From assembly GCF_013122565.1 (NCBI RefSeq), contig NZ_CP053258.1: 64,000 nucleotides of DNA; one strand, given 5' to 3'. A model generated the notes under the pieces. It had not been told where the DNA came from, searched no databases, and was given only the letters and a program-made list of their open reading frames with translations. Shown here in pieces: positions 30,748-35,655 of the stretch. The position numbers were made by a program, and so were the translations under genes. Origin of the DNA: Escherichia coli (GTDB lineage Bacteria; Pseudomonadota; Gammaproteobacteria; Enterobacterales; Enterobacteriaceae). How positions within the stretch are numbered: position 1 is the stretch's first letter; each line of letters opens with the position of its first letter.

Positions 30748-32031
30748 ATGACAGAAGCGATGAAAATTACCCTCTCTACCCAACCTGCCGACGCGCGCTG
30801 GGGAGAAAAAGCAACTTACAGCATTAATAATGACGGCATTACCCTGCATTTGAACGGGGCAGACGATCTGGGGCTGATCCAGCGTGCGGCGCGCAAAATT
30901 GACGGTCTGGGCATCAAACATGTTCAGCTAAGCGGTGAAGGCTGGGATGTGGATCGCTGCTGGGCATTCTGGCAAGGTTACAAAGCCCCGAAAGGCACGC
31001 GTAAAGTGGAGTGGCCGGATCTGGACGATGCCCAGCGCCAGGAACTGGATAACCGCCTGATGATCATCGACTGGGTGCGTGACACCATCAACGCACCGGC
31101 GGAAGAGCTGGGGCCATCGCAACTGGCACAGCGTGCTGTTGATCTGATCAGCAACGTCGCAGGCGATCGTGTGACTTATCGGATCACCAAAGGTGAAGAT
31201 CTGCGTGATCAAGGTTATATGGGGCTGCACACTGTCGGGCGCGGTTCAGAACGTTCTCCGGTATTGCTGGCGCTGGATTACAACCCAACTGGCGATAAAG
31301 AAGCACCGGTGTACGCGTGCCTGGTTGGTAAAGGCATCACTTTTGATTCCGGCGGCTACAGCATCAAACAGACTGCGTTTATGGACTCGATGAAGTCGGA
31401 CATGGGCGGCGCGGCAACGGTTGCCGGGGCGCTGGCATTTGCCATTACGCGCGGACTGAACAAGCGCGTGAAGCTGTTCCTCTGCTGTGCGGATAACCTG
31501 ATTAGCGGCAATGCGTTCAAGCTGGGCGATATCATCACCTATCGCAACGGTAAAAAAGTTGAAGTGATGAACACTGATGCCGAAGGGCGTCTGGTGCTGG
31601 CCGATGGTCTGATTGATGCCAGTGCGCAGAAACCGGAACTGATCATTGATGCGGCGACCCTCACCGGGGCGGCGAAAACCGCGCTGGGTAATGATTATCA
31701 TGCGCTGTTCAGTTTTGACGATGCGCTGGCCGGTCGCTTGCTGGCGAGTGCCGCGCAGGAGAACGAACCATTCTGGCGTCTGCCGCTGGCGGAATTCCAC
31801 CGCAGCCAGCTGCCGTCTAACTTTGCCGAACTGAACAATACCGGAAGCGCGGCGTACCCGGCAGGCGCGAGCACGGCGGCGGGCTTCCTGTCGCACTTTG
31901 TTGAGAACTATCAGCAAGGCTGGCTGCATATCGACTGCTCGGCGACTTACCGTAAAGCGCCGGTTGAACAGTGGTCTGCGGGTGCTACGGGACTTGGTGT
32001 GCGCACGATTGCTAATCTGTTAACGGCGTAA
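30748..32031 (+). CDS. pepB: Peptidase B (M17 leucyl aminopeptidase family)
   Basis: M17 signature [12 protein letters not shown]; start at internal ATG 30748 (AAGGA Shine-Dalgarno) giving 427 aa. Confidence 0.95.
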
Positions 32032-32039
32032 ACTAATAT

Positions 32040-32150
<111 letters not shown>

Positions 32151-32173: not shown

Positions 32174-32950
32174 ATGTCCGAAACAAAAAACGAACTTGAA
32201 GACCTGCTGGAAAAAGCAGCAACCGAACCGGCTCACCGCCCGGCCTTTTTCCGTACTCTACTGGAATCCACCGTCTGGGTGCCGGGTACGGCGGCGCAGG
32301 GCGAGGCAGTAGTTGAAGATAGCGCGCTTGATTTACAGCACTGGGAAAAAGAAGATGGCACCAGCGTCATTCCTTTTTTTACCTCGTTAGAAGCACTTCA
32401 ACAGGCGGTTGAAGACGAACAGGCATTTGTCGTAATGCCCGTTCGCACATTGTTTGAGATGACCCTTGGTGAAACGCTCTTCCTTAATGCCAAACTGCCA
32501 ACCGGTAAAGAGTTTATGCCGCGTGAAATCAGTTTGTTGATTGGTGAAGAAGGGAGTCCGCTGAGTAGTCAGGAAGTACTGGAAGGCGGTGAATCGCTGA
32601 TATTATCGGAAGTCGCAGAGCCGCCAGCACAAATGATTGATTCACTCACCACCTTATTTAAAACCATTAAGCCAGTGAAGCGTGCTTTTATTTGTTCAAT
32701 TAAAGAGAACGAAGAGGCACAGCCTAATTTACTTATTGGCATTGAAGCCGATGGTGATATCGAAGAAATTATTCAGGCGGCGGGAAGTGTAGCGACCGAT
32801 ACATTACCTGGCGATGAACCAATCGATATTTGTCAGGTGAAAAAAGGGGAAAAAGGAATTAGCCACTTTATTACCGAACATATTGCGCCATTCTATGAAC
32901 GTCGCTGGGGTGGTTTTTTGCGTGACTTTAAACAGAATCGGATAATCTAA
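32174..32950 (+). CDS. sseB: Protein SseB (enhances serine sensitivity)
   Basis: MSETKNELEDLLEKAATEPAHRPAFFRTLLEST...; 258 aa from ATG 32174; adjacent to pepB as in K-12. Confidence 0.88.
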   Translation: MSETKNELEDLLEKAATEPAHRPAFFRTLLESTVWVPGTAAQGEAVVEDSALDLQHWEKEDGTSVIPFFTSLEALQQAVEDEQAFVVMPVRTLFEMTLGETLFLNAKLPTGKEFMPREISLLIGEEGSPLSSQEVLEGGESLILSEVAEPPAQMIDSLTTLFKTIKPVKRAFICSIKENEEAQPNLLIGIEADGDIEEIIQAAGSVATDTLPGDEPIDICQVKKGEKGISHFITEHIAPFYERRWGGFLRDFKQNRII

Positions 32951-32953
32951 AAT

Positions 32954-32975
32954 ATGCCGCCCTAAAGGGCGGCAT
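32954..32975. terminator. Stem-loop after sseB, also positioned as terminator of the minus-strand toxin transcript
   Basis: atgccgccc taaa gggcggcat hairpin; on the minus strand it is followed by AUUUUA. Confidence 0.5.
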
Positions 32976-32981
32976 TCTGGC

Positions 32982-33119
32982 TTACCTGCTGTTCTGAAGG
33001 TTGTTAACCACCAGTAAATTGTCGCCGGAGAGACTCCGGTTATTATTTACCTCGGTTAACAGCGCACCAGAAACAATAAGTACGATACAGAAGCACCGTA
33101 TCTTCATTGTGCGGTCCAT
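32982..33119 (-). CDS. Small hydrophobic peptide, candidate type I toxin (TimP/RyfA-encoded-like), copy 1
   Basis: Minus-strand translation MDRTMKIRCFCIVLIVSGALLTEVNNNRSLSGDNLLVVNNLQNSR (internal Met gives 41 aa from 33107); single predicted TM-like segment; lies at the ryfA locus between sseB and sseA; below the 60-aa cutoff of the ORF track. Confidence 0.45.
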   Translation of the reverse strand: MDRTMKIRCFCIVLIVSGALLTEVNNNRSLSGDNLLVVNNLQNSR

Positions 33120-33330
33120 GCGAAGACCGCATCACGACAGCACCACTGGCGATATTGCCGCGATAGCAAGCGCTGAGACGCGCTTGCTCTAAAGGTCGCG
33201 GAACATCCTTTCCTTAAGCCAGCGCCCGCTTGCGAGACGGCGGAAAGGGCCGCAGTGGATAATACACTAACAGAACAATAATAACTCTCTTTTGCTTGAC
33301 AAAAAGAGAGTTACTGGCGAGTATTGTCTC

Positions 33331-33427
33331 CGCTGAGACGCGCTTGCATTACTACGGTAATACAACCTGCTGGAAAGGCCGCGAACCAAACCGGCAACAA
33401 ATAGCCGCCTGATTTTGGCGGTTTTTT
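33331..33427 (+). ncRNA. Divergent small RNA (TimR/RyfB-like antitoxin candidate), copy 1
   Basis: Sigma70-like promoter TTGACA (33296-33301), 17-bp spacer, GAGTAT (33319-33324); terminator ccgcc...ggcgg plus T6 at 33405-33427; 5-prime 17 nt (33331-33347) are the exact complement of the toxin mRNA leader segment at 33171-33187. Confidence 0.45.
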
Positions 33428-33552
33428 GTTGTTTAAAGAAAGTGAAATTACACGTTTAAGTAATATCTTTTATTGGTTAGTATTTTTAATATTAAGCGAA
33501 AATTGTTTATATTTGTCTGAATTCGGACTAATAAGTCAGGTTATTTTAATAT

Positions 33553-33628
33553 CGAACATATTGCGCCATTCTATGAATGTCGCTGGGGTGGGCTTTTGCG
33601 TGACTTTAAACAGAATCGGATAATCTAA
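33553..33628 (+). pseudogene. Duplicated 3-prime fragment of sseB (unit 2)
   Basis: Near-identical copy of sseB 32875-32950 including the stop codon and followed by a copy of the terminator hairpin; no upstream sseB sequence. Confidence 0.8.
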
Positions 33629-33659
33629 AATATGCCGCCCCAAAGGGCGGCATTCGGGC

Positions 33660-33797
33660 TTACTTGCTGCTCTGACGGTTGTTAACCACCAGTAAATTGT
33701 CGCCGGAGAGACTCCGGTTATTATTTACCTCGGTTAACAGCGCACCAGAAACAATAAGTACGATACAGAAGCACCGTATCTTCATTGTGCGGTCCAT
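33660..33797 (-). CDS. Small hydrophobic peptide, candidate type I toxin, copy 2
   Basis: Same ORF as copy 1 with identical hydrophobic core; C-terminal tail differs (…VVNNRQSSK). Confidence 0.45.
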   Translation of the reverse strand: MDRTMKIRCFCIVLIVSGALLTEVNNNRSLSGDNLLVVNNRQSSK

Positions 33798-34008
33798 GCG
33801 AAGACCGCATCACGACAGCACCACTGGCGATATTGCCGCGATAGCAAGCGCTGTGAAACACCTGCATTTACGGCCACGGAACATCCTTTCCTAAAGCCAG
33901 CGCCCGTTTGCGAGACGGCGGAAAGGGCCGGTGTCGATAATACGCTAAATAAACAATAATTACTCTCTTTTGCTTGACAAAAAGAGAGTTGCTGGCGAAT
34001 ATTGCTCT

Positions 34009-34109
34009 GCTGTGAAGCACCTGCGTTGCTCATGCAACACAAGTCAATCTGCTGGAGAGGCCGCGAACCAAACCGGCAACAAATAACCGCCTGATCTTGG
34101 CGGTTTTTT
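34009..34109 (+). ncRNA. Divergent small RNA (TimR/RyfB-like), copy 2
   Basis: TTGACA (33974-33979), 17-bp spacer, GAATAT (33997-34002); terminator at 34087-34109; 5-prime gctgtgaagcacctgc matches mRNA-leader segment 33850-33865 (two positions form G-U pairs). Confidence 0.45.
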
Positions 34110-34234
34110 GTTGCTTAAAGAAAGTGAATTTACATGTTTAAGTAATATCTTTTACCGGTTAGTATTTTTAATATTGAGCGGGATTTGTTTATATTTGTCT
34201 GAATTCGGACTAATAAGCCAGGTCATTTTAATAT

Positions 34235-34310
34235 CGAACATATTGCGCCATTCTATGAACGTCGCTGGGGTGGTTTTTTGCGTGACTTTAAACAGAATCG
34301 GATAATCTAA
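34235..34310 (+). pseudogene. Duplicated 3-prime fragment of sseB (unit 3)
   Basis: Identical to sseB 32875-32950 including stop; followed by terminator hairpin copy. Confidence 0.8.
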
Positions 34311-34341
34311 AATATGCCGCCCCAAAGGGCGGCATTCGGGC

Positions 34342-34479
34342 TTACCTGCTGTTCTGAAGGTTGTTAACCACCAATAAATTGTTGCCGGAGAGACTCCGGT
34401 TATTATTTACCTCAGTTAACAGCGCACCAGAAACAATAAGTACGATACAGAAGCACCGTATCTTCATTGTGCGGTCCAT
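34342..34479 (-). CDS. Small hydrophobic peptide, candidate type I toxin, copy 3
   Basis: Same ORF; relative to copy 1 two synonymous changes and one D-to-N change (…SLSGNNLLVV…). Confidence 0.45.
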   Translation of the reverse strand: MDRTMKIRCFCIVLIVSGALLTEVNNNRSLSGNNLLVVNNLQNSR

Positions 34480-34693
34480 GCGAAGACCGCATCACGACAG
34501 CACCACTGGCGATATTGCCGCGATAGCAAGCACTGTGGGGTGCCTGTATTTACGGTCATGGAACATCCTTTCCTAAAGCCAGTGCCCGTTTGCGAGACGG
34601 CGAAAAGGGCCGTTAAGAATAATACTCTCATGTTTGAATAATTACTCTGTTTATTATCTTGACATGGCCAGGCATAAAAGAGAGTATTTCAAC

Positions 34694-34793
34694 ACTGTGG
34701 GGTGCCTGCGTTGCTCCGGCAACACAAGCCAACCTGCTGGAAAGGCCGCGAACCAGACCAGCAATAAAAAACCGCCAAATTCGGCGGTTTTTT
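34694..34793 (+). ncRNA. Divergent small RNA (TimR/RyfB-like), copy 3
   Basis: TTGACA (34659-34664), 17-bp spacer, GAGTAT (34682-34687); terminator accgcc...ggcgg plus T6 at 34771-34793; 5-prime cactgtggggtgcctg equals mRNA-leader segment 34531-34546. Confidence 0.45.
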
Positions 34794-34809
34794 ATTGCCT
34801 GTAAAAAGC

Positions 34810-35655
34810 TTATTTCACTGGCTCAACCGGTAAATCTGCCCGCGCGCCCCATTCACTCCATGCGCCGTCGTACAGTTTCACGTTTGGCACATCCAGCGTC
34901 GCGAGTGCCAACAAAACCACGGCTGCTGTTACACCAGAGCCGCAGCTGACGATAATCGGTTTGTCATAGCTGACGCCGCGACCAAAAAATATCGCATCCA
35001 GTTCATCGGTCGTTTTTAGTTCGCCTTCGCGCACCAGTTCCGTCCACGGAACGTTCAATGCACCGGGAATATGTCCGCGACGTAAACCTGGGCGAGGTTC
35101 ATCAACTTCTGCGTTAAAACGTGCAGCCGGGCGGGCATCAACAATTTGCGCCGTATTTTCATGGCTTGCCAATAATACATCGGTTACTTTCACCACGGCT
35201 TCAGGATTAAACGCGGCGTTAAACTCTCCTTCCGGCAGCTCTACTGCACCTTCTTCTAACAACAGATCATCGCGCTGCCAGCCTGCAAGTCCACCCCCCA
35301 GAATCGACACTTTCTCTACACCAAAGGTGCGCAGCATCCACCATGCTCGTGGGGCTGAGAAAAGATTACCTTCGTCATAGACAATCAGGTGCTTATCCTG
35401 GTTAACGCCTAATTCACGCATTGCCACGGCGAACGTTTCCGGGCGCGGCAGCATGTGCGGAAGCGGGGAAGTGTGATCAGAAAGCGCTTCGATATCAAAA
35501 AACACTGCGCCGGGAATATGTCCATTCAGATACTCCTGAGCAACGTTACGATCTTCCTGTCCAGGCGACGCCATGCGGGCATCGATAATCTGAATTTCCG
35601 GGTCATCAATATGTTCGGCGAGCCAGTCGGCTCCTACAAACCATGTCGTGGACAT
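34810..35655 (-). CDS. sseA: 3-mercaptopyruvate sulfurtransferase (rhodanese family)
   Basis: Translation from internal ATG begins MSTTWFVGADWLAEHIDDPEIQIIDARM...; tandem rhodanese domains; 281 aa. Confidence 0.92.
   Translation of the reverse strand: MSTTWFVGADWLAEHIDDPEIQIIDARMASPGQEDRNVAQEYLNGHIPGAVFFDIEALSDHTSPLPHMLPRPETFAVAMRELGVNQDKHLIVYDEGNLFSAPRAWWMLRTFGVEKVSILGGGLAGWQRDDLLLEEGAVELPEGEFNAAFNPEAVVKVTDVLLASHENTAQIVDARPAARFNAEVDEPRPGLRRGHIPGALNVPWTELVREGELKTTDELDAIFFGRGVSYDKPIIVSCGSGVTAAVVLLALATLDVPNVKLYDGAWSEWGARADLPVEPVK

Follow-up and report, generated by a model that had tools for sequence, protein, structure and literature searches.

Described timP-timR systems and the locus in the window

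TimP of Salmonella enterica is a small membrane toxin encoded within the ryfA RNA and silenced by a neighbouring sRNA, TimR (Andresen et al. 2020; Eleftheraki & Holmqvist 2024; Eleftheraki et al. 2026). The translation, start codon, membrane localisation and toxicity of the Salmonella protein are established, while native TimP is undetectable in the wild-type strain and its de-repression by timR deletion does not slow growth (PMC7667032). A saturation screen in Salmonella found that missense and nonsense loss-of-function mutations cluster in the signal-peptide codons (PMC13000454). TimP is a textbook case of a small gene that escapes ORF-length cutoffs; its characterisation dates from 2020, and the NCBI pipeline now annotates it automatically.

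Tandem ryfA copies at the same locus were described in Shigella dysenteriae as RyfA1/RyfA2 with their sibling sRNAs RyfB1/RyfB2 (Fris et al. 2017). There, as in the DNA analysed here, each ryfA copy is accompanied by a divergent transcript of approximately 100 nt, with 16-18 nt of complementarity across a 5-nt variable region. The S. dysenteriae strain had two copies, and the RNAs were read as non-coding, a different predicted ORF (30 aa) having been tested. The E. coli pairs zorO-orzO, shoB-ohsC, tisB-istR1 and dinQ-agrB resemble timPR: the toxin is small and hydrophobic, the antitoxin sRNA is divergent, does not overlap and has a short complementary seed, and the ribosome binding site is hidden in RNA structure; zor-orz also forms tandem paralogous pairs with pair-specific seeds. 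However, these toxins are unrelated to TimP in sequence. Their mRNAs depend on processing by ribonucleases or on a standby site, while for timP refolding is enough for activation. The N-terminus of TimP resembles a signal peptide, while the other toxins have a plain transmembrane helix (PMC7667032).

We analysed a stretch of 64,000 nucleotides from an Escherichia coli chromosome (contig NZ_CP053258.1; "the window"). With a probability of about 90%, timP-timR type I toxin-antitoxin modules, three of them in tandem, occupy the intergenic region between sseB and sseA in this chromosome of E. coli/Shigella type (Table 1). The system is already known, and the window holds three tandem copies of the described module, compared to one in Salmonella. 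The ORFs, their assignment to protein and RNA families, synteny, complementarity and the conservation of structural elements were computed here; published work on the Salmonella allele supplies the start of translation, the location in the membrane, toxicity, repression by TimR and the RNA switch.

Table 1. Features of the three modules in the window (positions in the window; basis or remark in the last column)
Feature	Position	Strand	Basis or remark
timP mRNA 1 (formerly ryfA sRNA), approximate 5' end to intrinsic terminator, class CGCGT	32949..33253	-	RF00126, 314.0 bits, model 1-296 of 296; terminator 32975-32954
timP mRNA 2 (ryfA), class TGTTT (class of E. coli K-12)	33627..33931	-	RF00126, 316.0 bits
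timP mRNA 3 (ryfA), class CACCC	34309..34613	-	RF00126, 324.1 bits
45-codon ORFs, units 1/2/3	32982-33119, 33660-33797, 34342-34479	-	ORF listing, translation
timP copy 1 CDS, 41 aa, MKIRCFCIVLIVSGALLTEVNNNRSLSGDNLLVVNNLQNSR	32982..33107	-	NCBIfam match; upstream in-frame AUG at 33119 gives the 45-aa form
timP copy 2 CDS, 41 aa, C-terminus ...NNRQSSK	33660..33785	-	upstream in-frame AUG at 33797
timP copy 3 CDS, 41 aa, D29N (41-aa numbering)	34342..34467	-	upstream in-frame AUG at 34479
SL4 hairpin GCGGUCUUCGCAUGGACCGC	33111..33130	-	Rfam structure line, MFE folds; same sequence at 33789-33808 (unit 2) and 34471-34490 (unit 3)
Putative pseudoknot site 1, C(G/A)CUGGC	33218..33224 (unit 1), 33896-33902 (unit 2), 34578-34584 (unit 3)	-	sequence
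Putative pseudoknot site 3, GCCAGUG	33144-33150 (unit 1), 33822-33828 (unit 2), 34504-34510 (unit 3)	-	sequence
Switch site 2, unit 1, GACCUU	33192..33197	-	numbering mapped onto Salmonella
Switch site 2, GGCCGU (unit 2), GACCGU (unit 3)	33870-33875 (unit 2), 34552-34557 (unit 3)	-	numbering mapped onto Salmonella
Predicted TimR1 (RyfB-type) antitoxin sRNA	33331..33431	+	promoter TTGACA (33296-33301)-18 nt-AGTATT (33320-33325); terminator 33403-33423 and T-run; ends estimated
Predicted TimR2 antitoxin sRNA	34010..34113	+	promoter TTGACA-18 nt-AATATT at 33974-34003; terminator 34085-34105; ends estimated
Predicted TimR3 antitoxin sRNA	34695..34797	+	promoter TTGACA (34659-34664)-18 nt-AGTATT (34683-34688); terminator hairpin AACCGCCAAATTCGGCGGTT and T-run, end at about 34797; ends estimated
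TimR target in timP1 leader (SL2 5' arm and loop)	33171..33187	-	17 nt of perfect complementarity to TimR1
TimR target in timP2 leader	33849-33868	-	20-bp uninterrupted helix with TimR2, including 3 G.U
TimR target in timP3 leader	34531-34546	-	16 nt of perfect complementarity to TimR3
Duplicated 3' fragment of sseB, first copy	33545..33628	+	accompanies each extra unit
Duplicated 3' fragment of sseB, second copy	34227-34310	+	intact sseB ends at 32950

Three timP copies between sseB and sseA

The modules sit between sseB and sseA (the latter ending at 34810), and this synteny agrees with the RefSeq E. coli records. No STM2534-like gene lies between sseA and timP in the window. The boundaries of the units are marked by the sseB fragments, which RefSeq calls partial SseB pseudogenes in E. 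coli MEW.

The sequence-only reading had placed a small hydrophobic peptide in each unit, and this was borne out by the ORF listing and by our own translation, which gave three 45-codon ORFs on the minus strand. All three begin with M(DRTM)KIRCFCIVLIVSGALLTEV… and their product is MDRTMKIRCFCIVLIVSGALLTEVNNNRSLSG(D/N)NLLVVNN(LQNSR/RQSSK). The differences between copies that had been counted before were reproduced exactly by codon-by-codon comparison: two synonymous changes (T22 ACC>ACT, L36 CTG>TTG) and D33N in unit 3 compared to unit 1, and changes confined to the last residues (L41R, N43S, R45K) in unit 2 compared to unit 1. The peptide has a basic N-terminus (K2 and R4 in 41-aa numbering), and its mean Kyte-Doolittle hydropathy, calculated without a dedicated signal-peptide predictor, was 1.63 in residues 1-19 vs. 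-0.70 in the polar C-terminal tail. The layout is that of TimP, a basic and hydrophobic signal-like N-terminal segment followed by a polar tail.

Family matches identify the peptide as TimP. All three copies matched the NCBIfam family NF040796 (toxic_TimP) with 83.7-83.8 bits (cutoff 45, E = 7e-24) over profile positions 1-39/40 of 40 (copy 1: 83.8 bits, residues 5-43 of the 45-aa form), and each ORF sits within a full-length Rfam ryfA match (314-324 bits, gathering score 80). The Salmonella reference was P0076 (MKIRCFCIVLLVSGALCLHADRSYSGNFAPVTRNVQSR), which agrees with the published 38 aa, Ala20-Asp21 and Leu18. BLASTP against P0076, the protein comparison that had been proposed as a check, gave 22/39 identities and 29/39 positives (E = 3e-13); identity was 56% overall, and 15 of the 16 residues of the signal-peptide-like beginning were identical. 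A resemblance to the TimR-repressed TimP that Salmonella encodes in ryfA had been suggested in the sequence-only reading; it is supported by Rfam, NCBIfam, RefSeq, BLASTP and the divergent sRNA with complementarity to the leader. The Salmonella and window loci have both the RNA family (ryfA, RF00126) and the protein family (NF040796) in common, as well as the N-terminal segment MKIRCFCIVL(I/L)VSGAL. By contrast, the ORF starts at +147 in the window and at +145 in Salmonella, the protein has 41 vs. 38 aa, the C-terminal half is diverged (LTEVNNNRSLSG… in the window, CLHADRSYSG… in Salmonella) and the predicted Ala20|Asp21 cleavage motif of Salmonella is absent from the TimP of the window.

The exact 41-aa sequences of all three copies are already deposited in public databases under the name TimP, and RefSeq annotates timP at the same sseB/sseA position in E. 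coli, with up to three copies. A match was present in 5,425 of 5,426 complete E. coli genomes, with a maximum of three copies per genome. The copy-3 protein is widespread. Protein searches found homologues named TimP in Escherichia, Shigella, Citrobacter and Salmonella. The search with a single peptide, which required a 5-residue word, reached only Escherichia and Shigella; Salmonella TimP was reached by a second search using an alignment of Escherichia and Citrobacter proteins. The importance of the locus past correct annotation is small, and the value added is contextual.

By analogy with Salmonella, the three alleles of the window would act like the Salmonella allele: they would be translated, located in the inner membrane and toxic when over-expressed. 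The minus-strand transcript of approximately 305 nt, historically the ryfA sRNA, would be the mRNA, and its second AUG would open the 41-codon timP. The product would combine a Sec-signal-like hydrophobic N-terminus with a polar tail and, when over-produced as in Salmonella, would insert in the inner membrane and make it leaky. TimR (= RyfB), a divergent sRNA of approximately 100 nt made from the adjacent promoter, would use its 5' end to pair with SL2 of the cognate leader (5' arm and loop), holding the timP mRNA in an inactive fold.

Coding frame, start codon and other roles of RyfA

The ORF might be a by-product of a structured non-coding RNA, kept open by chance or by constraints on RNA structure, and no gene. 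Within the window its conservation does not exceed that of the non-coding RNA around it: 6 of 126 sites vary among the three copies in the ORF, compared to 0 of 59 at mRNA positions 88-146 (non-coding, SL3 and SL4). As the copies are recent duplicates and the upstream non-coding segment is even less variable, the invariance of the ORF among copies says nothing about coding. Moreover, part of the ORF lies in hairpins predicted by the Rfam structure, and an overlapping +1-frame ORF (26-31 codons) is open in 8 of the 9 copies, showing that open frames are not rare here. The real coding signal, as judged by comparison of genera, is the preservation of frame by indels relative to Citrobacter. In three Citrobacter ryfA homologues, the frame, the start and the aligned stop are all retained. 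Their C-terminal halves are strongly diverged and differ by indels whose lengths, 6 nt and 3 nt, are divisible by three. These loci came from a strict DNA pattern scan of genome contigs, with a pattern on SL4 and the start region, which gave 6 loci from Escherichia and Citrobacter and none from Salmonella; such a sample suits frame conservation, but is too small for broad covariation or dN/dS. A chance ORF was rejected because the frame is conserved across genera. The by-product explanation also leaves aside the match to a curated protein family, the Salmonella orthologue, which is translated from a known start codon, membrane-located and toxic, and the concentration of loss-of-function mutations in its signal-peptide codons, and we consider it extremely improbable. 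Coding in another frame was rejected: no family matched the +1-frame ORF, and in one Citrobacter copy its start is lost.

For the TimP reading, the start supported by homology is the second AUG, giving 41 aa (start at +147, stop ending at +272, relative to the RF00126 model of the ryfA RNA). It is favoured because residue 5 of the 45-aa form is where the NF040796 profile starts, because the RefSeq CDSs have 126 nt and because the Salmonella start was proven by ATG>AAG at +145, which is +147 here (PMC7667032). The sequence-only reading saw no obvious Shine-Dalgarno (SD) sequence; this is fair in that the SD is weak, but incomplete, as the 3' arm of SL4 contains a GGA (anti-SD duplex of -3.0 kcal/mol) placed 6-7 nt upstream of the second AUG. 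Its suggestion that translation is structurally gated was correct: the SD is sequestered in SL4 and, in the published switch, freed by a pseudoknot and by long-range site 2-4 pairing (PMC11228461, PMC13000454). The 45-aa form starting at the upstream AUG, as predicted for UPEC CFT073 (ORF at +135 to +270; PMC8205139), is an unlikely product. The upstream AUG is kept in 9 of the 9 Escherichia and Citrobacter copies compared, and some Citrobacter records annotate 42-aa MDR(T/A)MKIR… proteins. However, this AUG is part of SL4 and runs into the SD that serves the second AUG (AUGGA), and its conservation is therefore explained by RNA structure. Furthermore, it is preceded by no better SD (-2.4 kcal/mol), the NCBIfam profile and nearly all RefSeq CDSs begin at MKIR, and mutating the +145 AUG abolished the Salmonella protein. 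On these grounds the 45-aa form was rejected as the main product. A role of RyfA as a trans-acting regulator carries more weight, and we put it at somewhat under even odds. RyfA in Escherichia and Shigella would then be chiefly or additionally a regulatory RNA, TimR/RyfB would be its sponge or antagonist and the ORF would add little to the phenotypes, making ryfA a dual-function RNA instead of a pure toxin mRNA. Loss of ryfA in UPEC alters fimbriae, motility, oxidative-stress resistance and macrophage survival, and three ORF-disrupted alleles complement every ryfA-deletion phenotype of UPEC CFT073 (PMC8205139). In S. dysenteriae, ompC mRNA and cell-to-cell spread are both abolished when RyfA1 is over-produced (PMC5333039), ryfA and timR phenotypes have been reported in APEC (PMC13188913), and the greater conservation of positions 88-146 than of the ORF fits this role too. 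Nevertheless, a regulatory role leaves unexplained the frame-preserving indels, the start and stop conserved across genera and the signal-like N-terminus conserved from Escherichia to Salmonella. The negative translation test in Shigella used the predicted 30-aa ORF, most likely the overlapping +1 frame (MRSSHGPHNEDTV…) and not the timP frame. Regulation in trans is compatible with the toxin reading and not an alternative to it.

RNA switch elements and predicted cognate TimR pairing

The timP mRNAs of the window have the same SD-sequestering SL4 as Salmonella timP, and the site 1-3 and site 2-4 complementarities are present. SL4, whose role is taken from PMC11228461, is identical in all three copies; its 3' arm carries the weak SD, and its loop and stem carry the upstream AUG. 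[quoted passage not shown] Sites 1 and 3 can form 7 bp in all three copies, unit 3 having an A instead of a G opposite U in site 1 (G.U to A-U), and they probably correspond to the published pseudoknot (PMC11228461). Site 2, assigned by mapping onto Salmonella C57/C58/G59 and G125/C138 (PMC13000454), pairs with the 5' arm of SL4 over 6 bp in units 2 and 3, while the pairing is interrupted in unit 1. In unit 1, the nucleotide that corresponds to Salmonella G59 carries a G>U change, and in Salmonella this nucleotide is a hot spot for loss of function within site 2 (PMC13000454). Copy 1 has a natural mutation at this hot spot, and at least this copy may be poorly translated.

Every unit has a divergent adjacent gene for a predicted TimR-type sRNA, with a promoter (TTGACA-18 nt-A(G/A)TATT), a 5' seed complementary to SL2 and an intrinsic terminator. 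As in Salmonella, the part of SL2 with which the 5' end of the sRNA can pair is over 60 nt upstream of the ribosome binding site. Within the unit, the hypervariable segment is the one with the TimR target: 16 of 33 sites are variable at mRNA positions 55-87, compared to 0 of 59 at 88-146. Most differences between the units fall in this SL2/TimR-seed segment, so that the best partner of each TimR is its own timP: in silico, cognate duplexes had energies of -37.3, -34.9 and -36.2 kcal/mol, and the six non-cognate pairs ranged from -12.1 to -25.1 kcal/mol. These values are from a seed-restricted comparison, used in place of long-segment predictions, which gave inflated and unrealistic duplexes. 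timP2 can still form wobble-rich helices with TimR1 and TimR3 (-25 and -24 kcal/mol respectively).

A tentative view, which we hold to be rather doubtful, is that the modules are an actively diversifying and decaying array of mutually orthogonal toxin-antitoxin pairs. Specificity would come from the co-varying SL2/TimR-seed segment only, the cross-talk of timP2 would be asymmetric and copy 1 would possibly be silenced by its private site-2 G>U change. No paper on the three-copy state or on natural switch mutants was found in a literature search that mostly returned unrelated TIMP2 papers and was thus uninformative. Three of the four variable-region classes of Fris et al. (CGCGT, TGTTT and CACCC, classes as defined in PMC5333039) stand next to one another here, each accompanied by a TimR seed that matches it, and the locus is thereby a natural test bed both for the specificity of the antitoxins and for the RNA switch described in Salmonella. 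In S. dysenteriae, RyfB1 lowered RyfA1 but not RyfA2 (PMC5333039), which fits the cognate-only pairing computed here.

Identity and distribution of the tandem timP genes

Three head-to-tail units of approximately 680 bp each were located in the window between the 3′ ends of sseB and sseA, with flanking genes showing 98.6% identity to E. coli, which places the window on a chromosome of the E. coli/Shigella type. A duplicated sseB 3′-end fragment (~84 nt) accompanies units 2 and 3. Each unit carries a 45-codon ORF whose product reads MDRTMKIRCFCIVLIVSGALLTEVNNNRSLSG(D/N)NLLVVNN and ends in LQNSR or RQSSK. Compared with the unit 1 ORF, that of unit 3 has D33N plus two synonymous substitutions, and that of unit 2 departs from it only within the final five codons, three of which are altered. 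The sequence-only reading had reported one minus-strand peptide per unit with these difference counts, and codon comparison of the three ORFs showed it to be exact.

The Rfam ryfA family (RF00126, gathering score 80) surrounds each ORF (314.0, 316.0 and 324.1 bits), with 296/296 model positions matched in every unit. In the 45-aa form, the TimP protein-family match begins with residue 5. A peptide search followed by an alignment search returned sequences from Escherichia, Shigella, Citrobacter and Salmonella, all of them either proteins bearing the name TimP or fragments with no name. The proposed likeness to Salmonella TimP was confirmed: the 38-aa database protein (P0076, which agrees with the published description in Ala20-Asp21 and Leu at -3) shares 22/39 identities with the window peptide (E = 3e-13), and 15 of the first 16 residues are identical. 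Each of the three 41-aa sequences has an exact, previously deposited counterpart named TimP in the public protein collection, one of them in the sseA/sseB position on many contigs. Judged by these comparisons, the peptides are TimP; they are real, had been correctly interpreted, and were both previously known and previously annotated by automatic means.

The region was found by megablast in 5,425 of the 5,426 complete E. coli genomes, always on the chromosome, and RefSeq annotates one, two or three copies of timP at the matched locus. In E. coli MEW the three units are laid out identically, and the annotation there shows timP CDSs of 126 nt together with partial sseB pseudogenes. A single-unit query matched 5,595 places in 5,425 genomes (median 1, maximum 3 per genome); therefore, extra copies occur in at most ~3% of genomes and triplets are rare. 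The three-copy arrangement is uncommon, yet present in RefSeq genomes.

Some deposited genomes carry TimP variants, which are read-through, fusion or frameshift forms of 63-68 aa or a 38-aa form with a foreign tail (database proteins P0004, P0005, P0036, P0049 and P0067), indicating occasional disruption or mis-calling of the gene in natural isolates. The inter-unit spacer, composed of the TimR terminator antisense, the sseB 3′ fragment and a stretch rich in A and T, gave full-length matches to Rfam IS128 (RF00125); since these matches cover the spacer, the 'IS128 sRNA' family seems to be a piece of the repeat unit and not an independent gene. Just upstream of sseB, sub-threshold matches to naRNA4 (40.3 bits, gathering score 59.5) and ES036 (28.9 bits, gathering score 37.6) probably represent a REP-type repeat.

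Features of the timP-timR array and its surroundings (window positions)
Feature	Position	Strand	Basis
naRNA4/ES036 sub-threshold matches	32026-32116		Rfam
sseB stop (left border of array)	32950	+	
timP ORF, unit 1 (45 codons)	32982-33119	-	translation
timP ORF, unit 2 (45 codons)	33660-33797	-	translation
timP ORF, unit 3 (45 codons)	34342-34479	-	translation
Overlapping +1-frame ORFs	33043-33135, 33721-33867, 34412-34495	-	
Site 2, copy 1	33192-33197	-	
Palindrome, units 1 and 2	33280-33315, 33962-33989		
timP-timR spacer, unit 3	34653-34698		
Predicted TimR1	~33331-33431	+	promoter and terminator
Predicted TimR2	~34010-34113	+	promoter and terminator
Predicted TimR3	~34695-34797	+	promoter and terminator
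TimR body	33368-33384, 34050-34066, 34734-34750	+	
IS128 matches	33385-33595 (203 bits), 34067-34277 (225 bits)	-	Rfam
sseA stop (right border of array)	34810	-	

Coding status and function of the ryfA RNA

Invariance of the hydrophobic core across copies, as noted in the sequence-only reading, does not by itself establish more than chance. Six of 126 ORF sites vary among the three copies, and 0/59 vary in the non-coding nucleotides just upstream; because the copies are recent duplicates and this adjoining stretch is fully invariant, ORF invariance is not proof of coding. We therefore relied on a cross-genus comparison with six further ryfA loci, obtained from a DNA pattern scan and verified with Rfam. 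The frame, the AUG pair and the aligned UAA are all retained in three Citrobacter copies, even though the C-terminal half is nearly unalignable and shows indels of 6 and 3 nt. This frame conservation in other genera argues convincingly for coding.

The product of Salmonella timP, a gene earlier called ryfA, is a protein of 38 aa translated from an AUG at +145 and found in the inner-membrane fraction; its over-expression causes propidium-iodide permeability and Cpx induction and lowers viability 10^3- to 10^4-fold (PMC7667032). Toxicity and translation have been demonstrated for the Salmonella allele only. A serious further reading, compatible with the toxin, is that ryfA/timP is a dual-function RNA. 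In UPEC CFT073, where the identical 45-aa ORF was noted, ORF-disrupted alleles complement all ryfA-deletion phenotypes (PMC8205139), and a 2026 APEC study left toxic-peptide coding by E. coli ryfA to be determined (PMC13188913). A purely non-coding ryfA is not tenable, with the Citrobacter frame conservation and the Salmonella genetics against it. In Shigella, Fris et al. (2017) detected no protein from a predicted 30-aa ORF (PMC5333039), which is probably the overlapping +1-frame MRSSHGPHNEDTV… and not the timP frame. All three copies and most homologues keep this +1-frame ORF, (M)MRSSHGPHNEDTVLLYRTYCFWCAVN… (26-48 codons), open; its AUG is missing in one Citrobacter copy.

Predicted TimR antitoxins

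In Salmonella, TimR is a divergently transcribed sRNA that blocks timP translation by base-pairing of its 5′ end to 18 nt of the leader, as proven by compensatory mutations (PMC7667032). Upstream of each timP in the window we found a plus-strand promoter (TTGACA-18 nt-A(G/A)TATT) and, ~100 nt further on, an intrinsic terminator. The predicted TimR 5′ end is complementary to the SL2 5′ arm and loop of the adjacent timP in every unit (17 bp perfect for TimR1, 20 bp including 3 G.U for TimR2, 16 bp perfect for TimR3). In seed-restricted calculations, cognate duplexes 1, 2 and 3 reached -37.3, -34.9 and -36.2 kcal/mol, compared to -12.1 to -25.1 kcal/mol for the six non-cognate pairs. The target segment is the sole hypervariable part of the unit (16/33 sites variable among copies), and the three copies carry the 'variable region' versions CGCGT, TGTTT and CACCC catalogued by Fris et al. 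Together with RF00126, the RefSeq timP annotation and the TimP homologues, this seed complementarity bears out the sequence-only proposal of a TimP encoded in ryfA and repressed by TimR. S. dysenteriae has two tandem copies (RyfA1/2 with RyfB1/2), compared to three in the window, and RyfB1 lowered RyfA1 but not RyfA2 (Fris et al., PMC5333039).

The K-12 derivative RP437 (NZ_CP083410.1, L008 986-1500) has a single timP of the TGTTT class. The adjoining TimR gene matches CGCGT, the non-cognate class. Its cognate counterpart is found ~405 nt farther upstream, where 17 nt remain of a second timP, and the Rfam 'IS128' model spans the intervening spacer. Given this arrangement, deletion or recombination appears to have reshuffled the K-12 array.

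Each predicted TimR also has a conserved body, CUGGA(A/G)AGGCCGC, complementary with one bulge to the first ~15 nt of timP mRNA (…GGCCCUUU(C/U)C…; dG -15 to -22 kcal/mol). It is possibly a second contact or an evolutionary vestige, and the cited timP/ryfA literature makes no mention of such a contact. Between timP and timR, units 1 and 2 share the long palindrome ACTCTCTTTTTGTCAAGCAAAAGAGAGT, one strand of which includes the TimR promoter's TTGACA and the other a TTGTCA; it is a possible shared operator; the spacer of unit 3 is different.

Switch elements and start codon

The Salmonella timP mRNA undergoes no processing and its SD is trapped in SL4. Translation requires a 7-bp SL1-SL3 pseudoknot (PMC11228461) and likewise that site 2 form 6 bp with the SL4 5′ arm; if site 2 pairs with site 1 instead, the mRNA is locked in its inactive form (PMC13000454). 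The three copies in the window have the same SL4 sequence, GCGGUCUUCGCAUGGACCGC. The sequence-only reading of no obvious SD and structurally gated translation was essentially right, but an SD does exist and is itself the gated element: a weak GGA in the SL4 3′ arm, separated from the second AUG by 6-7 nt (anti-SD duplex -3.0 kcal/mol). The upstream AUG sits within the SL4 hairpin and has no better SD; homology supports the second AUG as the probable timP start (41 aa).

Window mRNA numbering equals that of Salmonella plus 2, so that the Salmonella uORF AUG (53-55) falls at 55-57 and the mutated pair G125/C138 at G127/C140; C57 pairs with G125 in Salmonella, just as its counterpart C59 pairs with G127 here. 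The 7-bp pseudoknot potential is present in every copy, between C(G/A)CUGGC (mRNA 30-36) and GCCAGUG (104-110). Site 2 reads GACCUU in copy 1 compared to G(A/G)CCGU in copies 2 and 3 and in all eight other Escherichia/Citrobacter copies compared, making the G>U change private to copy 1. The changed base is equivalent to Salmonella G59, within the C57-C58-G59 loss-of-function hot spot (PMC13000454), and by this analogy the toxin gene of copy 1 may have been silenced naturally.
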